Part shown: positions 4,581 through 63,670 of the stretch, in pieces | Layout: each line of letters begins with the position of its first letter | Position numbering within the stretch: position 1 is the first letter of the stretch | Assembly (NCBI GenBank): GCA_964016885.1 | Contig: OZ024749.1 | Span: 46,624,001-46,688,000, forward strand | From: Eledone cirrhosa | Lineage: Eukaryota | Length of the DNA: 64,000 nucleotides | Reading direction: 5' to 3' | Translations under genes and position numbers: made by a program | The notes under the pieces: generated by a model | Told to the model about the DNA's origin: nothing | The model's input: the letters and a program-made list of their open reading frames with translations, nothing else | The model's database searches: none

Positions 4581-5158
<578 letters not shown>

Positions 5159-5178
5159 TATATATACTTATATATATA

Positions 5179-5218
<40 letters not shown>

Positions 5219-5221
<3 letters not shown>

Positions 5222-5316
5222 CGAGGGAAATGTGGTAAGGAACCAGGTGGACCATAACGCACGAAAGTACTCAATACTTAGGGTAGTAGAGTGGGTAATA
5301 GGAACGAGCAGGACCC
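5219..5316 (-). mobile_element. Family A copy 2 (tail plus start of arm)
   Basis: taacgagggaaatgtggtaaggaaccagg..taggaacgagcaggaccc is the reverse complement of the copy 1 tail. Flanked by (TA)n. Confidence 0.9.
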
Positions 5317-5371
<55 letters not shown>

Positions 5372-5374
<3 letters not shown>

Positions 5375-5841
5375 GATATTAAACAAATGGAAACTATATT
5401 TATAAAACCATATTTATTTCATTATACATATTTCGGGGATACCATATTAAAAATGTGGCATGCCTTCATCAGATAAAATACAATATATAAACAGTTTTAT
5501 GAATAATTTTGACGTAACATAAATATGAGCGACCATTATGTAGGAAGCTGGTTTGGTAGTCTAACTACCAAACCAGCTTCCTACATAATGGTCGCTCATA
5601 TTGATGGTACGTCAACATTATTTATAAAACTGTTTATATATTGTATTTTATCTGACGAAGGCATGCCACATTTTTAATATGGTATCCCCGAAAAATGTAT
5701 AATGAAATAAATATGGTTTTATAAATATAGTTTCCATTTGTTTAATATCGTATATCTACTCCAAAAATTTGTCGAGTGCTTTATATCAGTTATAAAATAT
5801 TTACTTGTTGTAACCAAACAATTTTAAATAAAACTTTTGCA
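5372..5841 (+). mobile_element. Family B copy 1: long palindrome plus tail
   Basis: ~189-bp inverted arms (5372-5560 and 5564-5752) around a 3-nt loop, then an ~89-bp tail. CTGACGA-stem-GAAA core at 5652-5693. Second copy at 41333-41742. Confidence 0.9.
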
Positions 5842-5844
5842 CAC

Positions 5845-5939
<95 letters not shown>

Positions 5940-5974
5940 TGCACGGGTGTGTATGATTGTGTTTAGAAGTTTAT

Positions 5975-6297
5975 ATTAATAAAATAAATTCCAACGTTGT
6001 CTGATTTACTCGCTTTATTTACAATCCTTTAAAATTATAATGATAGTATAATGAAATAGTATGGTAGAATATTAAATGTTAAGTGTTAATTGAACAAGTA
6101 CTATTCAACAGTTGAACATTACAAACTTGACTCTCACCACTGAATATGAACCTGAAGATTGAGAAAGCATGAAAGTACTTGTTCAATTAGCACTTAAGAT
6201 TTAATATTTTACCATACTATTTCATTATACTATCATTTTAAATTTTAAGGGATTGTAAATAAACCGAGTAAATCAGACAAAGTTGGAATTCCTTTTA

Positions 6298-6302
<5 letters not shown>
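5975..6302 (+). mobile_element. Family D copy 1: fold-back element with hammerhead
   Basis: ~128-bp inverted arms (5975-6102 and ~6174-6302). The spacer carries the ribozyme core. Second copy at 9517-9722. Confidence 0.85.
6148..6184 (+). ncRNA. Minimal hammerhead motif (family D, stem II mutated)
   Basis: gaac-CTGAAGA-ttgagaaagcat-GAA-Agtact-T/gttc. Stem I gaac/gttc, palindromic stem III AGTACT. Confidence 0.65.
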
Positions 6303-6604: not shown

Positions 6605-7252
6605 TAAGTCATAGATACATACGTGTTTTGCAACCGGTCACGTTGTGGCTCAATGAGAAATTAATAAATAAAATAAAATAATCAGAGCTATATATCATAA
6701 AATATGTCTTTAGAATCACTAGATATAATATATACGAATTCCTCTCCCAATTAGTATAATTAACCATATAAAAATCAATTAAACCAGGCTATAAGAATAA
6801 AGGCTCCTATGAAGAAATCTCCGACAAATAACCGAAAGCAGCCCCTTCGCGGTGGCTACAATAGATTATTTATCTAACATTTCGACAGCAAGTAAATATC
6901 GACCAGTATACAGTCAACTAAACACAATTAGGTGTAAAATTGAACTTAGAAGAATTGCGTACATACCTCATTACCTCTACCATGGTTTCATCCGTATTTT
7001 AAGACATCCGATAACAAGGAATGTCCAGAGCTTCGGAATCATCAGGAGCGAGCTCAAAATAAGATATTTAATTTTCCAAAGTGATCGCGCCAAAAATACA
7101 TAAAAAAATGGCTAATAATCGTGGATTTCTTCATAGGAGCCTTTATTCTTATAGCTGGGTCCAATTGATTTTTTATATGGTTAATTATACTAATTGGGAG
7201 AAGAATTGGTATATATTATATCTAGTGATTCTAAAGACATATTTTATGATAA
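6605..7252 (-). mobile_element. Family I: fold-back element with ~300-bp spacer, hammerhead and tail
   Basis: ~125-bp inverted arms (~6694-6820 and ~7124-7252), tail at 6605-6693. Flanked by (TA)n. Confidence 0.85.
6975..7048 (-). ncRNA. Type I hammerhead motif with extended stem II (family I)
   Basis: Minus strand reads ctc-CTGATGA-ttccg..(gacattcc/ggatgtc hairpin)..cggat-GAA-Accatggt-A/gag. Palindromic stem III ACCATGGT, GUA triplet. Confidence 0.75.
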
Positions 7253-7505: not shown

Positions 7506-7604
7506 GTAAGTTTATCCCGGGTACAATGGGGGTAAGCACAGTAAGTAAGGTACTCGATACAAAGCAGACTAGAACTGTTTCATTCGGAAGAAATCATTCA
7601 GGAA
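7506..7604 (-). mobile_element. Family C fragment (internally deleted)
   Basis: cacagtaagtaaggtactcgatac..gactagaactgtttcattc matches the copies at 26232, 40084 and 42852. Confidence 0.75.
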
Positions 7605-7880: not shown

Positions 7881-9290
7881 ACACACATATATATATGTAT
7901 TGGCAGCAAAGAATATAAATATATATATATAAATGCATCTACTGAGTATATGCCCTTAAGAAAAACATTGCCTGAAGTATCTCGGAACATAAATTGCTTT
8001 TCAAGTCAAAAACGTAATAGCGAATGAAATACGATTTGAAAATAATTTTCCTTATCCCTTTGAGGTAATGTATGAATTGATCGATAGTTACTTGGTTTTT
8101 CGCGTGGTGAATATTGTGGAAACATCAATCTACCATAAATGTTTCATTCATCTTATTTGGATATAGTTTGAAAAATAGTACAACGTATTATTTGAACTTG
8201 TTTACATAAGAATCAATATTATATCACTGTTTTGACAATTCCTTCCGTCAACCAACCTCTACCTACGTATTCCGTTATTATATACACATACATCATATTG
8301 AAAGACCTATACTCAACCAGGCTGACTTATATTAGTAATCGTAATGGCAGTGTGTGTTTATTTACGGTTGTTTGTCTCCAATATAAATTTTGATATTCAT
8401 TTAACGAAGTGATATAACTAATTCCTAATTGGAAATATATTTAATTCTAGATTCCCAAATCCACGATGACTACTTCAGATATCTAGTAAAGCCAATAATA
8501 TGGGAAATGTATACTATTCTTTTTTGATTCGATTCTACATATTTCAGAAACGCAATCTTCAACGTTTAGTCACCAAACATCTTTCGACTCTGAGTACCAA
8601 CGAAAACGTAATTTTTATAAGTGATGTAAATTAGCTTTATGCAATGCAGTCTCATTCTATCGTAACTACAAATTCCACACTCAGATAATTGTCTCTCTTC
8701 TTATGAGTATATATCTGCTTCTCTCTGTATTTCTCATGTGTTATGTATATATCCACATATATGTGCGTGTGAGTGTGTCTGAATGTATACATTGTATATA
8801 ACTTATGCGAACAAATGTTCTCCCTGTCTACGAAAGAATATCTTCAAAACCAACTGTTAAATATGTACACCATTTTAGATGCTGTTTATTTTACTTTAGA
8901 AAATAGCTGAATTATATAGCTGAAGGCTCTTACAAAATAAACGATAGAGATGAGACAACCATTATGAGGTAGGCAATCGTAAACATTTAAAAAATATAGA
9001 CGGCCATGGAATCCTGAACGAAATTTAAGCGGTAAAACATCAATTACAAATATACACATATATAAGCACAGTTACCCAAACATACACTGGCACACCCTGA
9101 CACATACAACACACATACACACACACACATATATATATGTAAATGAATATACATACATATATATACAACGTTAATATTGATATAGCTCAAATTCTATTTC
9201 TTTTTGACTTATTTCTAAATTCGTGAAATTTTCGGAATATTCTCGGTGTAATGTGAATTCTTTCAAACTAAACTAATTTGACTTGTAAAA

Positions 9291-9385
9291 TAATTGTTTC
9301 TACTTTAGGCACAAGGCCAGCAATTAACCAGTACATTACTGGTACTTTATTTTATCGACCCGTAAGGATGAAAGGCAAAGTTGAC
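9291..9385 (-). mobile_element. 5'-truncated OK-like SINE with 17-bp TSD
   Basis: SINE 3' half. Direct repeat ttgacttgtaaaataat at 9278-9294 and 9381-9397. Confidence 0.9.
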
Positions 9386-15161: not shown

Positions 15162-15416
15162 CGTTTCTGAATTTGTTTAGCAAGGTTCTTTATCTGAAAA
15201 CGTGTGTTGAAACCGATATTGTTATGTCACTGAAGAGTTCACATAATGTGTGACGAAAGAACTTTGACAATATATGAACAATCGTCTGGTTGTGGAACCA
15301 ACCAACCAACCAGATATTTATAAATTCCTAAATTTATAAATTTAATTTCTAATAAATTGAAGTGAAAGTAACTGGTGCGTGTGTTTCTTATTGGCAACAT
15401 GACCCTCCCAAAGCAT

Positions 15417-18405: not shown

Positions 18406-18709
18406 ATATCACATAAGAAACGGAGAATAAGTGTTGCGACGAATAAAATATATTAGACATATTACAATCGTATTTTTCCTTCGTAGAATCGAGACATATC
18501 TGAGGGCCTTGCGACTTCAGAGCCAGTTTCGATCATTACATCGATCGTGCCTCGAGCTGGTCGCCACAGAAACGATTGCAATATGTCTAATACATTTTAT
18601 GAGTCGCAACACTGATTCTCCGTTTCTTATGTGATATCATACTCTGCTCTGTAAGAGCAGTTAGTGCTCCAACGGCCTACCGAGTACGGACGATTTAAGC
18701 ATCCACACC

Positions 18710-18714
<5 letters not shown>
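18406..18714 (+). mobile_element. Family H: fold-back element with tail
   Basis: ~66-bp inverted arms (18406-18472 and ~18572-18637), ~77-bp tail with bulged hairpin at 18640-18666. Flanked by (TA)n. Confidence 0.8.
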
Positions 18715-19038
<324 letters not shown>

Positions 19039-23148: not shown

Positions 23149-23358
23149 ACAAAGGAGTTGTGGTAAGGAACCAGATGGACCATAATGCACCAGAGTACTC
23201 AATACTAAGGGTAGTAGGGTGGGTAATAGGAGAAAGTATGACTCCAACGGCAGAGCTTAAGCCGTTTCGACGGCTGTTTCTGGACTAAAAGAAAAAAACT
23301 GTTTTTTAGTCCAGAAATAGCCGTCGAAACGGCTTGAGCTCTGCCGTCGGTGTCATAC

Positions 23359-23364
<6 letters not shown>
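23147..23364 (-). mobile_element. Family A copy 5 (subfamily b)
   Basis: Tail plus palindrome with a longer centre (ctggactaaaagaaaaaaactgttttttagtccag). Confidence 0.9.
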
Positions 23365-23401
<37 letters not shown>

Positions 23402-23404
<3 letters not shown>

Positions 23405-25157
23405 ACTTAGAGTTTACACTCAATTGGGTCATTTACAATTATTTCAACTTTAAGAATCGCTTCTGAGCAGTATAAATTAATATATGATAAACATTTACAT
23501 GTTTTAGTTGCAATTGACTAATAAAATGGTTTGATAGAAATATCTTAATTCAAATACATATAGTTTGCCTGTACGATCTAAAAAATAATAAATCAATACT
23601 CACAAATCCGTATGGGCAAAAGGCCCTGGTACCTAGACACGTTTAAATTTTAAAATACAAACTTTTTCCGCAAATCGGTCAGAACTTCAAACTTTAAACA
23701 TGTTTCACAAAGGATTGTATAATAGTGAAATAATTAATTAATTAGTAGTGAGTTAATTAATTTCCTGTGTTTATCAATAGGTACCCAGATAAATTAAGTA
23801 ACTTCACCTCAGAAAAATATGTAAGGTCTGGTTAACGTAGCGAAAATACACGAGGTTTTGCACACGACTTATTCCAGTCCTCTAACCTCCCACACATAGT
23901 GTTAGAAATAACAGCCGTTTATATGGGATTACAAATTCAGCTCGACTGAGGGAGCAGTAATATAATATAACTTAGAGTTTACACTCAATGGGGTCATTTA
24001 CAATTATTTCAGCTCTAAGAATCGCTTCTGAGCAGTATAAATTAATATATGATAAACATTTACATGTTTTAGTTGCAATTGACTGATAAAATGGTTAGAA
24101 TGAAATATCTTAATTCAAATACATATAGTTTGCCTGTACGATCTAAAAAATAATAAATCAATACTCACAAACCCGGCTGTTATTTCTAGCACTATGTGTG
24201 GGAGGTTAGAGGACTGGAATAAGTCGTGTGCACAACCTCGTGTATTTTCGCTACGTTAACCAGACCTTATATATTTATCTGGGTATCTATTGATAAACAC
24301 AGACAATTAACTAACTCACTACTAATTAATTAATTATTTCACTATTATACCATCCTTTGTGAAACATGTTTAAACTTTGAAGTTCTGACCGATCTGCGGA
24401 ACAAGTTTGTATTTTGAAATTTAAACGTGTCTAGGTACAAATGCATTTTGCCCATACGGGTTTGTGCGTATTGATTTATTATTTTTAAGATCGTACATGC
24501 AAACTATATCAATTTGAATTAAGATATTTCATTCTAACCATTTTATTAGGCAATTGCAACTAAAACATGTACATGTTTATCATATATTAATTTATACTGC
24601 TCAGAAGTGATTCTTAGAGCTGAAATAATTGTAAATGACCCCATTGAGTGTAAACTCTAAGTTATATTATATTACTGCTCCCTCAGTCGAACTGAATTTA
24701 TAATCCCATATAAACGGCTGTTATTTCTAGAACTATGTGTGGGAGGTTAGAGGACTGGAATAAGTCGTGTGAAAAACCTCGTGTATTTTCGCTACGTTAA
24801 CCAGACCTTAGATATTTTTCTGAGGTGAAGTTACTTAATTTATCTGGGTACCTATTGACGAACACAGAACATTAATTAACTCACTACTAATTAATTAATT
24901 ATTTCACTATTATACCATCCTTTGTGAAACATGTTTAACGTTTGAAGTTCTGACAGATGTGCGGAAAAAGTTTGTATTTTGAAATTTAAACGTGTCTAGG
25001 TACCAAGGCCTTTTGCCCATACGGGTTTGTGAGTATTGATTTATTATTTGTTTAGATCGTACAGGCAAACTATATGTATTTGAATTAAGATATTTCATTC
25101 TAACCATTTTATTAGTCAATTGCAATTAAAACATGTAAATGTTTATCATATATTAAT
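23402..25157 (-). mobile_element. Family N: 565-bp monomer in tandem and inverted array (about 3 monomers)
   Basis: ataacttagagtttacactc starts at 23402 and again at 23967. Orientation flips at 24174-75, then ~1.75 reverse-complement monomers run to 25157. (TA)n on both sides. Confidence 0.9.
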
Positions 25158-25175
25158 ATATATATATATATATAT

Positions 25176-25363
25176 GAGTCCAGTCGTTTTCGTTGCTATG
25201 GCAAAGCGGCTGGACTGCCGATCGCTATATTTGATTTGCAAAGCTGTCTAAATGTATTGTTATAAATCTGGCGTATTATTCTCCATCGAATGCTAAAGCT
25301 ACATTCCGAATTTACATTCGTTAGCTTAGCCCCAGCCTAAAGCTTCGTTAATGCCGTACTAAA

Positions 25364-25427
<64 letters not shown>

Positions 25428-25576
25428 TGTAACGGACATTATTATTATATATATATATATATATATATACTGTTTATATTATATATATATATTATATATA
25501 TATTATATATATATATATATATACACATTTTAGTACGGCATTAACGAAGCTTTAGGCTGGGGCTAAGCTAACGAAT
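25176..25576. mobile_element. Family P: element end duplicated as a perfect 54-bp inverted repeat across a TA-rich spacer
   Basis: 25316-25369 is the exact reverse complement of 25523-25576. 5' hairpin agtccagtcg..cggctggact near 25177-25216. Confidence 0.75.
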
Positions 25577-25636
25577 TATATATATTATATATATATACTG
25601 TTTATATTATATATATATATATTATAAACAGTATAA

Positions 25637-25803
25637 GTAGAGCGTCGGACGCCATGCTTTCCAGTATAGTTAGTCCCTTTAGGATCTGAGTTCAAGTCCA
25701 ACCCAGGTTTACTTTGCCTTTCATTCTTACGGGGTCGATAAAATAAAGTACCAGTAATGTACTGGGTAATTGCTGGCCTTGTGCCAAATGTAGAAACAAT
25801 TAT
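25637..25803 (+). mobile_element. OK-like tRNA-derived SINE, nearly full length
   Basis: B-box-like gagttcaagtcc, core ctttgcctttcattcttacggggtcgataaaataaagtaccag, tail agaaacaattattatt. Confidence 0.9.
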
Positions 25804-25935
25804 TATTAATATTATTATAATTATTCTCTACATTCCTTACATCAAACTAAAATATGTTGACAATCTGTTTATAATGTCTTCCTTGTGAAAATTGTGGTCT
25901 TGTTTTGCTTAACTAATAAATATATGTATATATAT

Positions 25936-26231: not shown

Positions 26232-26414
26232 AGATGAGATTTTACAGGACTAGAACTGTTTCATTCTTTAGATCTCATCAGATCCCTGATGATTTCTAAA
26301 GATTGAAACAGTCCCAGTCCTGTAGAATCTTATCTATATTAAAACTGTTATACTCTGCTATGTATTGAGTACCTTACCTACTGTGGTTACCTTCGATTCA
26401 ACTCGGAATATACG

Positions 26415-30073: not shown

Positions 30074-30255
30074 TTGGCAGAATCGGTAGAGGGTCGGACG
30101 GCAGGCATTACAGCATAGAGTTATGAACTTTTATGATCTTACTTCAAATCGCGTCGAGGTTAACTTTGCCTTTCATCCTTACGGGGTCGATAAAATAAAG
30201 TATCAGTAATGCACTGGGATAATAGCTGGCCTGGTGCCAAAAGTAGAAACTATTA
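30074..30255 (+). mobile_element. OK-like SINE with 15-bp TSD
   Basis: SINE body. attatgtgtatgtgt at 30059-30073 and 30252-30266. Confidence 0.9.
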
Positions 30256-30548
30256 TGTGTATGTGTCTATATGTATGTGAGTGTGAATGTGATTGGGAAA
30301 ATGAGGGTGAGTGTGTATGATTGTGTATGTGTGTGTCTGTATGTGTGTGTGTGTGCATCTGTGTGCGCGACCGTTGAATCAACCCACATAAAATATGTGA
30401 GACAGGAATATAGTTCCGATGTAATTGAATTGAAATTTCATGTGCGACTAATATATAAATATTGTGACAATGATATTTAATTTAAAAATACATTTTAAAA
30501 ATTACCTTTCATGTCAGGTTCATAATATAATGTTCTATATAATTATAA

Positions 30549-30738
30549 GGGCGGTGGATTGGCAGTATCGGTAGAGAGTAGGACGCCATGCTTTCCAGCA
30601 TAGTTACGTCCCTTTACGATCTGAGTTCAAATCCCGCCGAGGTTGACTTTGCCTTTCATCCTTACAGGGTCGATAAAATAAAGTACCAGTAATACACTGG
30701 GTAATTGCTGGCCTTGTGCCTAAAGTAGAAACAATTAT
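30549..30738 (+). mobile_element. Full-length OK-like tRNA-derived SINE with ~25-bp TSD
   Basis: A box tggcagtatcgg at 30560-71, B box gagttcaaatcc at 30623-34. tataatgttctatataattataagg at 30526-30550 and 30736-30760. Confidence 0.95.
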
Positions 30739-31825
30739 AATGTTCTATATAATTATAAGGCGAGCCGTCGTCTATCACAAAATAAGAAATACTATAGAAG
30801 AAATCATGTGAAAAATAAAATAATGGTTAATGTATATGTTAAGAACTGTTTATCCGATGACATTTCAAAAATCTGTCCTACGGGGTTATTCATAAATATC
30901 AATATATCTTTAAAACTATTCATAAATATAAACAACAAACATTATGGAATATGTGTATATATAACCCTACATACGCATATTATATCAGGTAGCCTTCACA
31001 TGTTACCGTTGATATGTAACTGAAATGAACCTGTTGATTGTTCTGGTCGGTGGTGACTGATGCTGTAACCAGAGCAAACCTGCTTCATGAGGATGGTAAT
31101 ATATGGACGTCCTGCGATATGAAACAAAACGTGGAGGAACTCATATGAGTCACCGGCCATCTAATTTCCGAGATAGAAAGCTATAAACTGTATTTACATT
31201 TGTTGGCCCATCTCATGCCACCTCGTTTCATTATGTGAGGCAGTTGTGGAGAAGTTAAACTCCGTGACAATGAAACATTAGGACAGTTGTCCCAGATTTC
31301 ATGTGGCAAATCTACTTAAATTATTTACTATCAGCAAACACAATATATATGGCTGGTCCTACACCGTCAATTATAAGATTTATCGCATAATTAGTACGGC
31401 AGACCATCAGATCAACAATAAGTTCCATCCAAAATTAGCAATCAGCATGTCCATTGAGTCCTTGTTTTTAAGTATATAGCAGGAGATATATATCAATGCG
31501 TATGGTAATTAGTTCGCGTTCCTAATATATTATTTATCTTAACTAGTCACGTTGTTTCTTTCATGTACATGTCAACTTTATAAACACAAAGATTATACGT
31601 GATTACAATGTATTTTGTAGATACGTGTGCTTTTTAAGCGAAATGAAATATCATTCTGATTTAGGTTGACTTCCATATTTTGTAAAAAGAAATATAAATT
31701 ATTTCGTCATTTTAGAAGGAAAACATTGGAAAATTCAATAGTAACAATAAATAACACACAGCTATCTATAACTGGTTTTAGTTTCTCTCTCGCACTCACA
31801 TCATATTCGTCATTTTGACTGTATT

Positions 31826-32792: not shown

Positions 32793-32845
<53 letters not shown>

Positions 32846-32847
<2 letters not shown>

Positions 32848-33033
32848 ACGAAGGAAATGTGGTAAGGAACCAGGTGGACCATAACGCACCAAAGTACTCA
32901 ATACTTAGGGTAGTAGAGTGGGTAATAGGAACAAATAAGACCCCGACGGCTGAGCTCAAGCCGTTTCGACGGCTAATTAGAATTAGCCGTCGAAACGGCT
33001 TGAGCTCAGCCGTCGGGGTCTTACTTGTTCCTA
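32846..33033 (-). mobile_element. Family A copy 6
   Basis: Tail plus near-perfect palindrome centred on aattagaatt. Confidence 0.9.
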
Positions 33034-33111
33034 TATATATTTATATATATATATATATGTATATATATACATTCTACTGTACGTCTGTATACATATATGT
33101 ATGTATACATA

Positions 33112-40083: not shown

Positions 40084-40307
40084 TTTTATTTTATAGAAGG
40101 AGCTTCTACAGGACTAGTACTGTTTCATTCAGATGAAATCTTCAGGAAACAGGTCTTCCTGAAGCAGGGCTTCCTGAAGATTTCATCTGAATGAAACAGT
40201 ACTAGTCCTGTAGAACCTCCTTCTATCAAATAAAACATTTTTACTCTGCCATGTATTGAGTACCTTACTTACTGTGGTTATGCCCGACTAAACCCGGGAC
40301 CTACGTA
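40084..40307 (+). mobile_element. Family C variant: fold-back plus tail
   Basis: Near-perfect arms atagaagg..cttcaggaa and ttcctgaag..ccttctat. The centre has a duplicated cttcctgaag. Tail hairpin tactc..gagta. Confidence 0.85.
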
Positions 40308-41300: not shown

Positions 41301-41959
<659 letters not shown>

Positions 41960-42850: not shown

Positions 42851-42851
42851 G

Positions 42852-43034
42852 GTACGTTATTCCGGGTTGAATCGGAGGTAACCACAGTAAGTAAGGTACT
42901 CAATACATTGCAGAGTATAACAGTTTTAATATAGATGAGATTCTACAGGACTAGAACTGTTTCATTCTTTAGAAATCATCAGGAAAACAGTAGAAAACAG
43001 TTCTAGTCCTGTAGAATCTCATCTATATTAAAAC
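42852..43034 (-). mobile_element. Family C: fold-back plus tail
   Basis: Arms gttttaatatagatgagattctacaggactagaactgttt and aaacagttctagtcctgtagaatctcatctatattaaaac. Flanked by (TA)n. Confidence 0.9.
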
Positions 43035-44020: not shown

Positions 44021-44218
44021 GAAAAAGTATGACCCCGACGGCAGAGCTCAAGCCGTTTCGACAGCTATTTCTGGACTAATTTAGTCCAGAAATAGCCGTC
44101 GAAACGGCTTGAGCTCTGCCGTCGGGATCATCATTTTTCCTATTTCACACTCTACTACACTAAGTATTGAGTAATCTGGTTATGGTCCATCTGGTTCCTT
44201 ACCACAATTCCTTTGTTA
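44021..44218 (+). mobile_element. Family A copy 7 (subfamily b)
   Basis: Palindrome centred on ctggactaatttagtccag, plus tail. Confidence 0.9.
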
Positions 44219-44975: not shown

Positions 44976-45138
44976 CAGTTTAATCGGGTGGAAGATCATG
45001 TAGACAGAAACGTTTTAACGATAGTGTAATTTAACCAAATAACAAATGTTTCGATGATATAAAATGGAGAAATGAGTTTTTGCTGACATCAATTTTTAAC
45101 ATCAATTTCATACATGTTATAATACAAATCATTTCTAC

Positions 45139-45228
45139 TTGTATACCGGGTGCGCTTTTCAAACACTTTTTTATATTATTTTCTTTATATAACACGATCT
45201 GTATAATGAGGCTTTATATATATAAGTG

Positions 45229-45292
<64 letters not shown>

Positions 45293-45387
45293 TATATTTG
45301 TATACCGGGTGCGCTTTTCAAACACTTTTTTATATTATTTTCTTTATATAACGCGATCTGTATAATGAGGTTTTATATATATAAGTG

Positions 45388-45395
<8 letters not shown>
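45139..45395. repeat. 98-bp direct duplication separated by (TA)n
   Basis: 45139-45236 versus 45298-45395, with two mismatches. Confidence 0.9.
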
Positions 45396-45945
<550 letters not shown>

Positions 45946-46450: not shown

Positions 46451-46895
46451 GAAGGTGAGTCTTATTGTAGCAACAAGAACACAATGCAAATATCGGATAA
46501 ATAGCAGTCCACAGTTTATAGGAGTGGAGTATAAATAATATAAGATCAAAAGATGGTTAGAAGGGTTCCAAGTATTTTATTATGCGCATTTCAAAAACAA
46601 ATATCATCATGGGATGATATTTGCGTTCTCAGCAGATAAAATAGGGAAACATGATATATATATCCTTACCATTTCCTACCCCACCTCCTTTTTTCCCAAT
46701 CTCATATATACATCTTACTTTATTTTTCATATTTTATTTTAAAACTTCACTGCTCACAAGTGTATTTTAAGCGTCATATCATGTTTTACTATTTTATCTG
46801 ATGAGAACGCAAATATCATCCCATGATGGTATTTGTTTTTGAAATGCGCATAATAAAATACTTGGAACTCTTTCAACTATCGTTTTATTTTATAT
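46451..46895 (-). mobile_element. Family K: fold-back with a hammerhead in each arm, plus tail
   Basis: ~120-bp arms (~46537-46657 and ~46776-46895), tail at 46451-46536. TA-flanked. Confidence 0.85.
46790..46860 (+). ncRNA. Type I hammerhead ribozyme motif (family K)
   Basis: tattttat-CTGATGA-gaacgcaaatatcatc ccat gatggtatttgttttt-GAA-Atgcgcat-A/ataaaata. Perfect 8-bp stem I, ~16-bp stem II, palindromic stem III ATGCGCAT. The mirror copy at 46573-46643 (-) has CTGCTGA. Confidence 0.9.
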
Positions 46896-46961
<66 letters not shown>

Positions 46962-50262: not shown

Positions 50263-50516
<254 letters not shown>

Positions 50517-52063: not shown

Positions 52064-52733
52064 TTTGTGGTCTGTATGTGCCTGTGTGTGCCTGTGTTGT
52101 GTTTATGTGTGTAAGTATGATTGTTTTCTAATTTAAAAGCATTTTTTTAGCTCATATAACGTTAGAAAGTGTACATTGGGGGTATACTATTACACTGTAA
52201 TCTAGTCTTTCTCCATTGTTTAATTAAAAGTATTTTATGCAATACATTAGTTATTACACACGTACTTAGTTATTTGTTTCCAGACCTTCGTCACCAGAAG
52301 CTCATTAAATAGGACGACACAGATACTACATAACGCATTTTCTGCATCTATTTTACCATTATGTTTTCTGCCTGTAATGGAGATACATCATTAGAAAGGA
52401 CTAGAATTGTATTATTGTTATTTGTGTTAATCAGCAATGTCTTTATTTCCTAAAATCATTATGTTTTTTAAGTATGATGGAGACTCGAAAATACACACTA
52501 TTTATGAATGTGTCATAGTATTCAGTTCCATTTCTTCCACTTACTCCCAACATATCGTCTATTCTGAAATTCCATTCTTCTCTCACACTTCTCGATTACA
52601 ATATGTACTATCGATATACAAAAGAAAATTCTGCAATGCTGGATTCTCTACCTACTAAATAAGTAAATGTGCGCCAATTCCGTTATTGTTATGCCTGCTA
52701 CTCTATATATGTGGATATTATTCTAGTATTTAA

Positions 52734-52920
52734 GGGGCGGTGGATTGTGAGTATCGGTAGAGGGTCATGATTTCCTTCATAGAGCTACGGTCCTTTACAA
52801 CCTGTACTCAAATGCCGCCGTCGTTAACTTTGCTTTTGATGCTTAAGGGGTCGATAAAATAAAACACCAGTAATGTACTGGGATAATTGTTGCACTTGCG
52901 CCAAAAGTAGAAACAATTAT
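52734..52920 (+). mobile_element. OK-like SINE with 18-bp TSD
   Basis: ggggcggtggattg..agtagaaacaattat. attatt(c/t)tagtatttaag at 52717-52734 and 52916-52933. Confidence 0.9.
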
Positions 52921-53259
52921 TTTAGTATTTAAGCGCAATATTCCATGTGGTACAAAAGATAAAATCCTTTAAGTATCTCAATAGAATGCATTACTTTTCA
53001 GTATATTTATTGTTATATAATTATTTAATTTGGTTGTGAAGTGACCTTTAGCTGAATCTTGTACGCCTTCCAATCGATCCCAGATCTGCATATTTATTTG
53101 CCATCTTCATTTCTTATTTCCTTCCTTCTGTCATTTCAATGTTAAATATATAATTATTGTAGAAACTGTTGCCATGATGCGCCAGATTCAAGTGAAGTTG
53201 GTTTAAAAGTCAAACTCTTAAATATCAATTGGCTGTTTGAGCGTTCCCTTAATTAAGGC

Positions 53260-54037: not shown

Positions 54038-54317
54038 TAATTGTTTATACTTTTGGCACAAGGCCAGCAATTATTTGAACTCAGGATTTGAACTCAGACA
54101 ATAAAAGAGCCGTAACTCTTTGCTGCAAAGCTATGCTTCCGACCCTCTAGCGATACTGCCAATCTACCGCTTATATCATATAATAATTGTTTCTCCTTTT
54201 GGCACAAGGCCAGCAATTAGCCAGTACATTACTGGTACTTTATTTTATCGACCCCGTCAGGATGAAAGGCAAAGTTAACCTCAGCGGGATTTGAACTCAG
54301 AATGGCAAGGGCCGTAG
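54038..54317 (-). mobile_element. Two adjacent OK-like SINEs: internally deleted (54038-54170) and 5'-truncated (54184-54317)
   Basis: Both begin taattgttt..ttttggcacaaggccagcaatta on the + strand. Confidence 0.85.
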
Positions 54318-61389: not shown

Positions 61390-61424
<35 letters not shown>

Positions 61425-61430
61425 ATAAAT

Positions 61431-61682
61431 GTAAACTATCGCCGTATTTTGACTGAATACATTATTTAGCCTGATAGTGGGGTTAAGAACCCTCGGAGAA
61501 ATGGAAAAAGGTGAGTATTGACCTACATGTACGTCGATACCCATATTTCTCCATTTCTCCGAGGGTTGTTAACCCAACTATCAGGCTAAATAATTTCTTT
61601 AATTTCTTTAGTCAAAACACGGCGACAGCTTACATTTATAATAATTTCAAACCCGCTCGCTGTTTCAAAATTAATCTAAACT

Positions 61683-61684
<2 letters not shown>
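61431..61684 (+). mobile_element. Family J copy 2
   Basis: Longer palindrome centred near tacatgta, with a tail ending ..gctcgctgtttcaaaa..acttg before (TA)n. Confidence 0.8.
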
Positions 61685-63439: not shown

Positions 63440-63670
63440 TTTATTAAATAACAGACTAAATTTTAAGCAAAGAATCGCTGGTTTCACCCTTAACGGGATC
63501 TTCGGAAACTACCAGTTTCAGAAGATCCCGTTGAGGGTGAAACCACCGATTCTTTGCTTAAACTTTAATCTGTTATTTAATAAATATGTGCTCTACGGTT
63601 CTTATATATTTGATATATATTTATCCTTATCGATCCCTCTTTCGATTTTAATCTTCAAATTTATTATTAT

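Follow-up and report, generated by a model that had tools for sequence, protein, structure and literature searches.

An inverted partial tandem of a 565-nt unit in (TA)n DNA of Eledone cirrhosa: a probable non-autonomous Penelope-like insertion with a bulged tail hairpin and a hammerhead-like motif

Penelope-like elements (PLEs) insert as partial tandems with an inverted 5'-truncated copy and a tail at one end, and they show a bias toward (TA)n targets (PMC8557442). Their head-to-head inversions have an overlap at the junction (PMC3846280), and PMC8969392 is likewise cited for this insertion pattern. In AT-rich DNA, the anole PLE protein, which is predicted to form a dimer, cleaves both strands and extends them. 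Reverse transcription begins at two internal RNA sites whose spacing equals the tail, RNA located 3' of these sites is required, and insertion in vitro is equally good with a dead hammerhead (PMC11167929). This is the one PLE reconstituted in vitro in the literature that we found, and its RNA recognition motif is localised, not defined. Animal retrozymes are tandem units of 150-450 bp that contain type I hammerheads, are expressed as circles, and are probably moved by PLEs (PMC7229834). A preprint describes them as non-autonomous PLE derivatives with consensus lengths of 51-972 bp and reports cleavage of one of nine dimers (bioRxiv 10.64898/2026.07.22.740005). Here, we analyzed an element at positions 23402-25157 of a 64,000-nt stretch of Eledone cirrhosa DNA (assembly GCA_964016885.1, contig OZ024749.1, positions 46,624,001 to 46,688,000, hereafter the window), in which a 565-nt unit is repeated in two opposed arms.

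On balance, we favor the view that the element is a non-autonomous PLE-type unit of 565 nt that was mobilised in trans, from an RNA longer than one unit, by two reverse transcriptions. The analysis confirmed the geometry of the element, the pattern of its decay, the statistics of its motif, and a layout common to it and its neighbors. From these we infer a PLE protein acting in trans, two internal priming events, and a longer-than-unit RNA.

The repeat period is 565 nt in both arms (23395-23610 versus 23960-24175 and 24273-24484 versus 24838-25049). The left arm (23402-24175), whose sense strand is the minus strand, spans 774 nt or 1.37 units, and its 3' outer end lies at 23395-23404, ambiguous since these positions are A/T only. 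It is composed of L2 (23396-23960), a complete unit of 565 nt with 31% GC and no open reading frame (ORF), and L1 (23961-24175), a 5'-truncated unit of 215 nt that covers monomer positions 351-565. The right arm, on the plus strand, spans 984 nt plus a 24-nt deletion, or 1.74-1.78 units. It is composed of R1 (24174-24671), a 5'-truncated unit of 498 nt that begins at monomer position 44 and carries the deletion, and R2 (24672-25157), a 486-nt piece of the unit that reaches the inner 3' end. The arms meet head to head at a CG common to both (24174-24175), where the alignment of one stops at 24175 and that of the other begins at 24174, and the two 5' truncation points correspond to monomer positions 44 and 351. 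A previous reading of the letters alone, the sequence-only reading, had described 1.37 and about 1.75 monomers that flip at this CG, and our measurements confirmed it. The deletion, which lies near 24273-24281 and is bordered by a short A/T repeat and not by GT-AG, was absent from that account.

The 3' ends of both arms point outward into (TA)n, which occupies the left flank (23365-23401, AT period 2, 18.5 copies) and the right flank (25158-25175), so that the location proposed previously is borne out; a target-site duplication is not readable within the (TA)n of these flanks. The left terminus reaches about 76 nt further into the unit than the right terminus (72-81 nt, depending on the choice of the A/T-only boundary), which leaves a one-sided tail (23402-23477, minus) with no counterpart at the terminus of the right arm. 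The sequence-only reading had put this difference at about 70 bp and had assigned the element the same tail rule as small elements nearby, both in agreement with the measured value. In sense order, the unit contains a degenerate minimal hammerhead, a bulged hairpin (H1) 229 nt further on, and a degenerate repeat of this hairpin (H2) after another ~56 nt. The unit has a GC content of 31%, and the longest stop-free frame wholly within the element is 71 aa.

The element thus combines a head-to-tail partial tandem with 5' truncation, an inverted 5'-truncated copy placed head to head, a tail at one end only, and insertion in (TA)n. This layout equals the descriptions in PMC8557442 and PMC3846280 and therefore points to a PLE insertion, a class that is assigned here from the insertion layout. 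The neighbors of the element, which share the tailed (TA)n layout and in several cases carry canonical minimal hammerheads, likewise point to a PLE insertion mechanism. The window resembles non-coding animal DNA, with a microsatellite density suggestive of a cephalopod. It has a GC content of 33% outside microsatellites, and dinucleotide runs make up 12% of it. Among its 29 rows of local inverted repeats, three belong to this element and 26 do not. One end lies no more than 3 nt from (TA)4 in 18 of the 26, and both ends do so in none, compared with a background of 1.6% of unmasked positions that near (TA)4. We took 19 of these 26 rows as single elements; the seven dropped rows comprise two that join separate elements, two that pair dispersed repeats 1.2-1.5 kb apart, and three that do not show the flush-plus-short-tail layout. 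The one-sided tails of the 19 elements measure 70-94 nt in 13, 29-56 nt in four, and 105 and 140 nt in two doubtful cases. Together, 18 tailed elements, including this one, occupy 6613 bases or 10% of the window.

In most of the long tails, which are unrelated in sequence, the start shows a shared fold: RCTC leads into a short inner stem with its loop, followed by a 3' bulge of 2 nt beginning with U and by GAGY. In the 565-nt unit, this fold is H1, with a 4-bp GCTC/GAGC stem, a 2-nt 3' bulge, and a 4-bp inner stem. The right-arm copy (24599-24620, plus) lies 7 nt 3' of the inner-end position and has a pair probability of 0.74, and the copy in L1 (24012-24033, minus) is intact with a pair probability of 0.96. 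A descriptor of the fold matched 24 places in the window, compared with 8.9 ± 2.8 per shuffled window (30 shuffled windows), and 10 of the 24 matches fall on the sense strand within 20 tails (1545 of 128000 strand-bases; binomial p 1e-13). The other matches comprise two internal copies in this element, one after the canonical hammerhead at 497-541, three more copies of one small family, three alternative pairings of one 3' strand, one within a small element, and four that resemble background. When the tail was shuffled, 18 of 5000 shuffles yielded such a hairpin within the first 25 nt.

The spacing of the hairpin is similarly constrained at both ends. Of 12 small tailed elements whose hairpin is recognisable, 11 have it 4-10 nt from the inner end and one has it 21 nt away; here the distance is 7-9 nt. 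The distance from the hairpin to (TA)n is 43-53 nt in 11 of 13 elements, including a solo one (63 and 67 nt in the other two), and 45 nt here; one row, F6, is omitted from these tabulated counts. In most families an A-U pair closes the hairpin, and in this element and at 6688 the pair is G-C. We conclude that a bulged hairpin is likely shared between the element and the small tailed elements, and its role as a recognition signal is moderately supported. The sequence-only reading had claimed the same tail hairpin for both, which holds for architecture and spacing; the sequence differs, and the hairpin has decayed in the terminal left copy. A simple GAGT/ACTC hairpin near the outer end was also considered as a common motif and was rejected, as it is not shared with the small elements.

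The element alone is long enough to reveal sequence past the outer start site. Just beyond the outer-end position, its internal units repeat TACTGCTC and, 8 nt on in the left arm, GAGCTGAA, which are the words that frame H1. These collinear exact words total 16 nt in the left arm, a value matched by 3 of 4000 shuffles, and 13 nt in the right arm, where one base differs and 109 of 4000 shuffles do as well; the statistic was picked after the result of an ordinary local alignment. When 5424 pairs of sub-windows of the unit were ranked, H1 was joined with this second site in 15 of the top 16. The candidate hairpin H2 (23940-23955, minus) keeps the 4-bp outer stem and the bulge with a single inner pair, and lies 4-11 nt 3' of the outer-end position; in its right-arm copy (24677-24692, plus), one outer pair is broken. 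H2 begins 78 nt after H1, which is the tail length, and each insertion end lies a few bases 5' of one hairpin. A role of H2 in priming is a lead that this one element provides.

Because the H1-H2 spacing equals the tail and both ends lie a few bases 5' of a hairpin, a two-hairpin ruler suggests itself. Each subunit of a PLE dimer would bind one bulged hairpin and start 4-11 nt 5' of it, so that the tail would equal the hairpin spacing (78 nt), and the second hairpin, located beyond the outer end, would go uncopied in insertions shorter than one unit. The signal would then belong to a single PLE lineage in which at least five families, unrelated in sequence, carry it. We regard this idea as speculative and would sooner expect it to fail than to hold. 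If true, a parasite RNA with the bulged hairpin could spread as multimers even though its hammerhead is dead or depends on protein.

The four segments differ from each other by 4.2-7.0%, including a few terminal TA mismatches, consistent with the several percent of divergence noted previously. In columns covered by three or four segments, 38 changes are private (L2, 12/490; R1, 17/490; R2, 8/416; and L1, 1/207), with no significant difference among the rates (p 0.11). The comparison also contains two three-state sites and no 2:2 site. Because private changes dominate and no 2:2 site exists, the segments appear to have been alike at insertion and to have then drifted independently by about 2.6% each. 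This star-like divergence fits a circular template and is also compatible with a young homogeneous linear multimer. No arm-specific or position-specific variants that would separate the two were found among the four segments, and by our own arithmetic, differences in the source are bounded at roughly 2% (~133 four-way columns with no informative site). An RNA-level origin of the changes, with an excess of transversions, was rejected, as transitions make up 14 of 38 changes versus 37 of 70 in control arms (p 0.16).

Three of the four segments hold a hammerhead-like motif, and the 215-nt L1 does not extend to it. The left copy (23697-23777, minus) is a degenerate minimal type I motif with U3-A8, a stem II with seven of eight pairs, a 48-nt loop II, a palindromic CATG loop III, and a 2-bp stem I. 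The right copies, both on the plus strand, have U3-A8 and five of eight stem II pairs (24290-24370) or U3-G8 and six of eight pairs (24855-24935), and are exactly 565 nt apart (24370 and 24935). Common to the three copies are the U-U-G-A-N-R-A core, stem II, GAAA, the palindromic CATG loop, and UU. The sequence-only reading had assigned the motif to each monomer, which is correct at the coordinates it gave and fails for L1. The stem II that it quoted is present in the left copy, at seven of eight pairs, and is weaker in both right copies; in the left copy, one pair is due to a private substitution. Its U3-A8 core exists in two copies and is replaced by U3-G8 in the third, and its 2-bp stem I is found in all three.

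Dinucleotide shuffles of the monomer, searched on both strands, contained the motif 0, 1, 12, and 59 times per 3000 from the strictest to the loosest of four criteria, which were fixed after the motif was seen. Because the motif exceeds chance in these shuffles, it is probably the descendant of a real hammerhead. Helix I matches only the D. virilis exception to the 4-5 bp rule, the 10.1-11.1 pair is A-U instead of G10.1-C11.1, and positions 9 and 10.1 have no extra base between them. Being common to all three copies, the short helix I of 2 bp and the A-U pair predate the insertion. ACATGT is also present in all three, with a self-duplex energy of -4.6 kcal/mol. In predicted monomeric folding, forcing the hammerhead fold costs 7.6, 14.7, and 14.4 kcal/mol above the best fold in the three copies, to which helix III of a dimer would add about -4.6 kcal/mol, compared with penalties of 0.0 and 1.3 kcal/mol for the canonical controls at 497-541 and 46798-46852. 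Both halves of the core are predicted to be engaged in local hairpins. The circular monomer has a self-pairing z of -1.7, and 6 of 100 shuffles are equally stable. The predicted cleavage site lies at about monomer position 264, and neither 5' truncation point (44, 351) coincides with it. Inspection by eye revealed no acceptor AG beside the motif for an intron ending before helix I in the D. virilis style. In the model favored here, the motif would represent a relic from a PLE or at most a hammerhead that works with protein help; one PLE hammerhead is known to cleave only with protein (PMC11167929).

Homology searches added no coding partner to this picture. Both blastn and nhmmer recovered only the four segments in the 64-kb window, and the next match had an E value of 0.044 and a bias above its score. 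Of 44 frames overlapping the element, 33 were searched against Pfam and gave no match. The 107 stop-to-stop window frames searched (these 33 and 74 selected elsewhere) contained no reverse transcriptase (RT) or GIY-YIG domain, and the 11 weak matches elsewhere all fell under the curated cut-offs. Rfam gave no window match at the gathering score and one irrelevant match within 23300-25300 at E values up to 10; this silence is uninformative, because Rfam also missed both canonical minimal hammerhead controls. A GTDB pattern scan gave 0 matches and plasmid and phage collections none, which is uninformative for a eukaryote given that these collections are prokaryotic, phage, and plasmid. Two short motifs of the unit had only unrelated matches in the PMC8557442 supplement among the three of six places listed, and the ends of Octopus Naiad consensus sequences, compared by eye, do not resemble the unit.

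In the model that we favor, the source locus would yield a transcript that exceeds one unit in length, and an uncleaved linear multimer is its simplest form. The RT/GIY-YIG protein of an autonomous PLE, probably dimeric, would cut both (TA)n strands, as the anole protein suggests (PMC11167929). Priming of two cDNAs inside the RNA would define the ends: a start about 7 nt 5' of H1 would give the inner end (25157) and a start 4-11 nt 5' of H2 the outer end (~23402), with the tail as the distance between the two start sites. The cDNAs would extend 1.37 and ~1.75 units and then be joined head to head via the CG overlap, after which the four segments would mutate independently. Hammerhead cleavage would not be needed. 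As to the driver, 31 recently active PLE families are reported in Octopus vulgaris (PMC13282606), and families of this kind would supply it if the host is a cephalopod. The Naiad clade, whose members do not have canonical hammerheads and are long dead in cephalopods (PMC8557442), is disfavored by the canonical hammerheads in neighboring elements that have the same hairpin.

Several observations weigh against this model. The tail of ~76 nt is about twice the published 30-40 bp, which is a typical value and not a definition. The 64-kb window contains no autonomous PLE and no second copy of the unit, and the sequence fits a linear multimer and a circle alike. As for the hairpin, the second bulge base is A here and T or C in the small elements, H1 is damaged in the terminal copy L2 (23447-23468, minus), where two private substitutions affect the outer stem, and the descriptor behind the counts above was designed in knowledge of this element. 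From three small-element families, a covariance model of four base pairs was built, in which only the outer stem is in register and the inner part is poorly aligned; it missed H1 of this element among 24 matches at E values up to 10. It found five held-out copies of another family weakly (E 0.6-8.6), and it also weakly matched a neighbor's hairpin at 23193. Lastly, the local alignment of H1 with H2 is modest (42 and 385 of 5000 shuffles), and other window pairs score equally.

The sequence-only reading had proposed a rolling-circle retrozyme. Its account of a tandem unit that is non-coding, was retro-inserted, and has a motif probably derived from a hammerhead stands, but the inversion, the tail, and the (TA)n target are PLE marks and not rolling-circle marks, and no feature of the sequence calls for a circle. 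As a true retrozyme, the element would derive from a multimer self-cleaved by its hammerheads, either as dimers through the palindromic loop III or with protein help, and from a 565-nt circle copied by a PLE RT in rolling-circle fashion and integrated in a PLE-like manner. We consider this origin rather unlikely, with a chance that deserves to be taken seriously; a rolling circle as such is possible for this element. The motif beyond chance, the two successive motifs exactly one unit apart, and segments alike at insertion, as one circle predicts, all speak for it. Moreover, PLE hammerheads offer separate precedents for a U3-A8 core, a long helix II, a palindromic helix III, and a helix I of 2 bp (PMC4209133), and protein-dependent cleavage has the PLE precedent mentioned above. 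These points are opposed by the energetic cost of the hammerhead fold and the core halves tied in local hairpins, by the 2-bp helix I and A-U 10.1-11.1 pair that are older than the insertion, by a circular monomer that is not strongly self-paired, and by the lack of an element end at the cleavage site. In addition, eight of nine predicted retrozyme dimers were uncleaved in vitro (bioRxiv 10.64898/2026.07.22.740005). The element resembles a retrozyme as a PLE-dependent non-coding multimer, and we do not file it as a member because its hammerhead fails two structural features and the circular unit is not clearly self-paired. In the preprint's broad sense of a non-autonomous PLE derivative, the label is not far off. 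The earlier remark that metazoan retrozymes are usually shorter depends on the range used, as 565 nt is above 150-450 bp (PMC7229834) and within the preprint's 51-972 bp.

Origins that involve DNA alone appear less credible. Microhomology junctions also arise in DNA repair, and (TA)n tracts are fragile. A local rearrangement, in which a 565-nt tandem duplication was followed by fold-back inversion during repair, or a small satellite, would fit the CG junction, the (TA)n flanks, and the lack of a further copy in 64 kb. We consider it improbable, given that both outer ends lie at the hairpin-relative positions where unrelated small elements end, both are flush with (TA)n, and the four segments are about equidistant, with no signal of stepwise duplication. 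Tandem Repeats Finder with the preprint's settings detected no period-565 array at the element, which further disfavors a satellite. Long inverted repeats, TA flanks, and hairpins near one end would also suit a DNA transposon, such as a TA-targeting miniature inverted-repeat transposable element (MITE) or fold-back element, or a derivative of a Helitron/Helentron that contains internal tandem repeats. This is very improbable, as the termini are asymmetric by 76 nt, unlike those of a MITE or a terminal-inverted-repeat transposon, with other elements likewise asymmetric by other lengths; the 5' TC and 3' CTRR ends of Helitrons (PMC8969392) are absent from the termini; and hammerheads are present in elements that share this layout. 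Assembly of inverted tandem structures is difficult (PMC8557442), but an assembly or library artefact such as a fold-back chimera is hardly credible here, since the arms and units differ by 4-7% and by a 24-nt indel, whereas a chimera from one molecule would be near identical.

The surroundings of the element contain further insertions of related kinds. Other inverted-repeat insertions (23149-23363 and 25176-25576) lie to its left and right within one (TA)n stretch that forms a local hot spot; in the insertion at 25176-25576, (TA)-rich DNA separates the arms, and the tail rule is not obeyed. Elements in (TA)n with tails of 70-94 nt include 4917-5106, 5374-5844, 6605-7251, 18410-18712, 18748-18940, 23149-23363, 26237-26414, 32845-33034, 40084-40305, 41334-41740, 42851-43034, 44021-44216, and 46451-46904, and a repeat annotator would probably call many of the tailed elements MITEs. 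A second class, with tails of 29-56 nt and without the bulged hairpin (5936-6300, 45433-45640, 61421-61684, and 63441-63612), probably owes its mobility to a different PLE lineage, one whose tails have the published length. An extra copy of the tail hairpin found in the 26352/40243/42916 family lies at 7548-7571 on the minus strand (model search, E 0.021). The commonest small family has short members at 50278-50447 and 5144-5316; the 50278 copy apparently does not have the hairpin-bearing part of the tail, which may reflect a later deletion or count against a requirement for the hairpin.

Elsewhere, the window contains ten type I hammerhead-like motifs of the C3-G8 kind, and six of these lie within tailed elements that belong to four families. 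The ten lie on the plus strand at 497-541, 5652-5701, 15230-15264, 41643-41691, and 46798-46852 and on the minus strand at 5472-5423, 7045-6978, 26281-26251, 33359-33325, and 33694-33663. In the two that were folded (497-541 and 46798-46852), the hammerhead fold is at or near the minimum energy, and by this prediction they are better ribozyme candidates than the motif of the 565-nt unit. A solo 3' fragment (497-694, plus), for which no inverted arm was detected, contains the first of these and a bulged hairpin at 602-641 that lies 53 nt before (TA)n. A dispersed family of ~130-200 nt and 77-95% identity, which by size resembles short interspersed elements, is found at 25629-25824, 30074-30272, 30527-30757, 41823-41959, 52715-52935, 54168-54317, and 9286-9385. 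At 45136-45431, a 159-nt tandem duplication is 98% identical, with (TA)n within the unit.

In twin priming of the LINE-1 retrotransposon, each of two target strands serves as primer for one cDNA and the two cDNAs join at a microhomology, and LINE-1 primes on a poly(A) 3' end. The element is alike in its two cDNAs and microhomology, but here both starts would be internal, ~76 nt apart. The hammerhead also has precedents. PLEs of Schistosoma have U3-A8 cores, Penelope of D. virilis has a helix I of 2 bp, and the tested motifs of both species show low activity in vitro (PMC4209133). The hammerheads of Schistosoma mansoni and Drosophila virilis thus provide models for U3-A8, a long helix II, a palindromic loop III, and a 2-bp helix I, whereas in this unit the oddities are combined and joined by the A-U 10.1-11.1 pair, no extra base after 9, a C-U mismatch in helix II, and the 48-nt loop II. 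Chlamys PLEs such as MRC1 are likewise non-coding PLE derivatives with multicopy head-to-tail insertions (PMC8557442). However, they are found in green algae at other microsatellite targets, and the clade is mostly without hammerheads, whereas here the host is an animal, the target is (TA)n-rich, and a probable hammerhead relic is present. Metazoan non-LTR (long terminal repeat) retrozymes are similar in being non-coding, in having a GC content below 50% (31% here), in their tandem units with a type I hammerhead motif (hammerhead-like here), and in their PLE dependence (probable here). In contrast, fewer than two whole units are present per arm here, and the hammerhead is non-canonical and predicted unfolded; the inversion and the tail form no part of the retrozyme definition in the available text of PMC7229834 and the preprint.

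As a repeat, the element is ordinary for a PLE-rich animal genome. The window adds ~20 natural insertion products with a common hairpin at a fixed distance from both ends, and the element bears on whether animal retrozymes require an active ribozyme and a circle for multimers to spread. Our literature search, which left out most subscription papers and repeat databases and is weak evidence of novelty, returned no description of a bulged hairpin conserved in PLE tails, of tails of 70-94 nt, or of PLE hammerheads in cephalopods. Published PLE insertions are alike in the partial tandem, the head-to-head inverted 5'-truncated arm, the one-sided tail, the AT-rich or (TA)n target, the absence of a clear target-site duplication, and, upstream of the 3' end, a minimal type I hammerhead, which here is a degenerate hammerhead-like motif. 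They differ in that here there is no ORF, the whole 565-nt unit repeats, and the tail is ~76 nt versus 30-40; the available PLE texts mention no bulged hairpin at a fixed distance from both ends, which is present here. Overall, the sequence-only reading is confirmed as an observation and supported in part as an interpretation, and the element is best read as a non-autonomous insertion of the PLE type, variant in its tail length and its hairpin signal.

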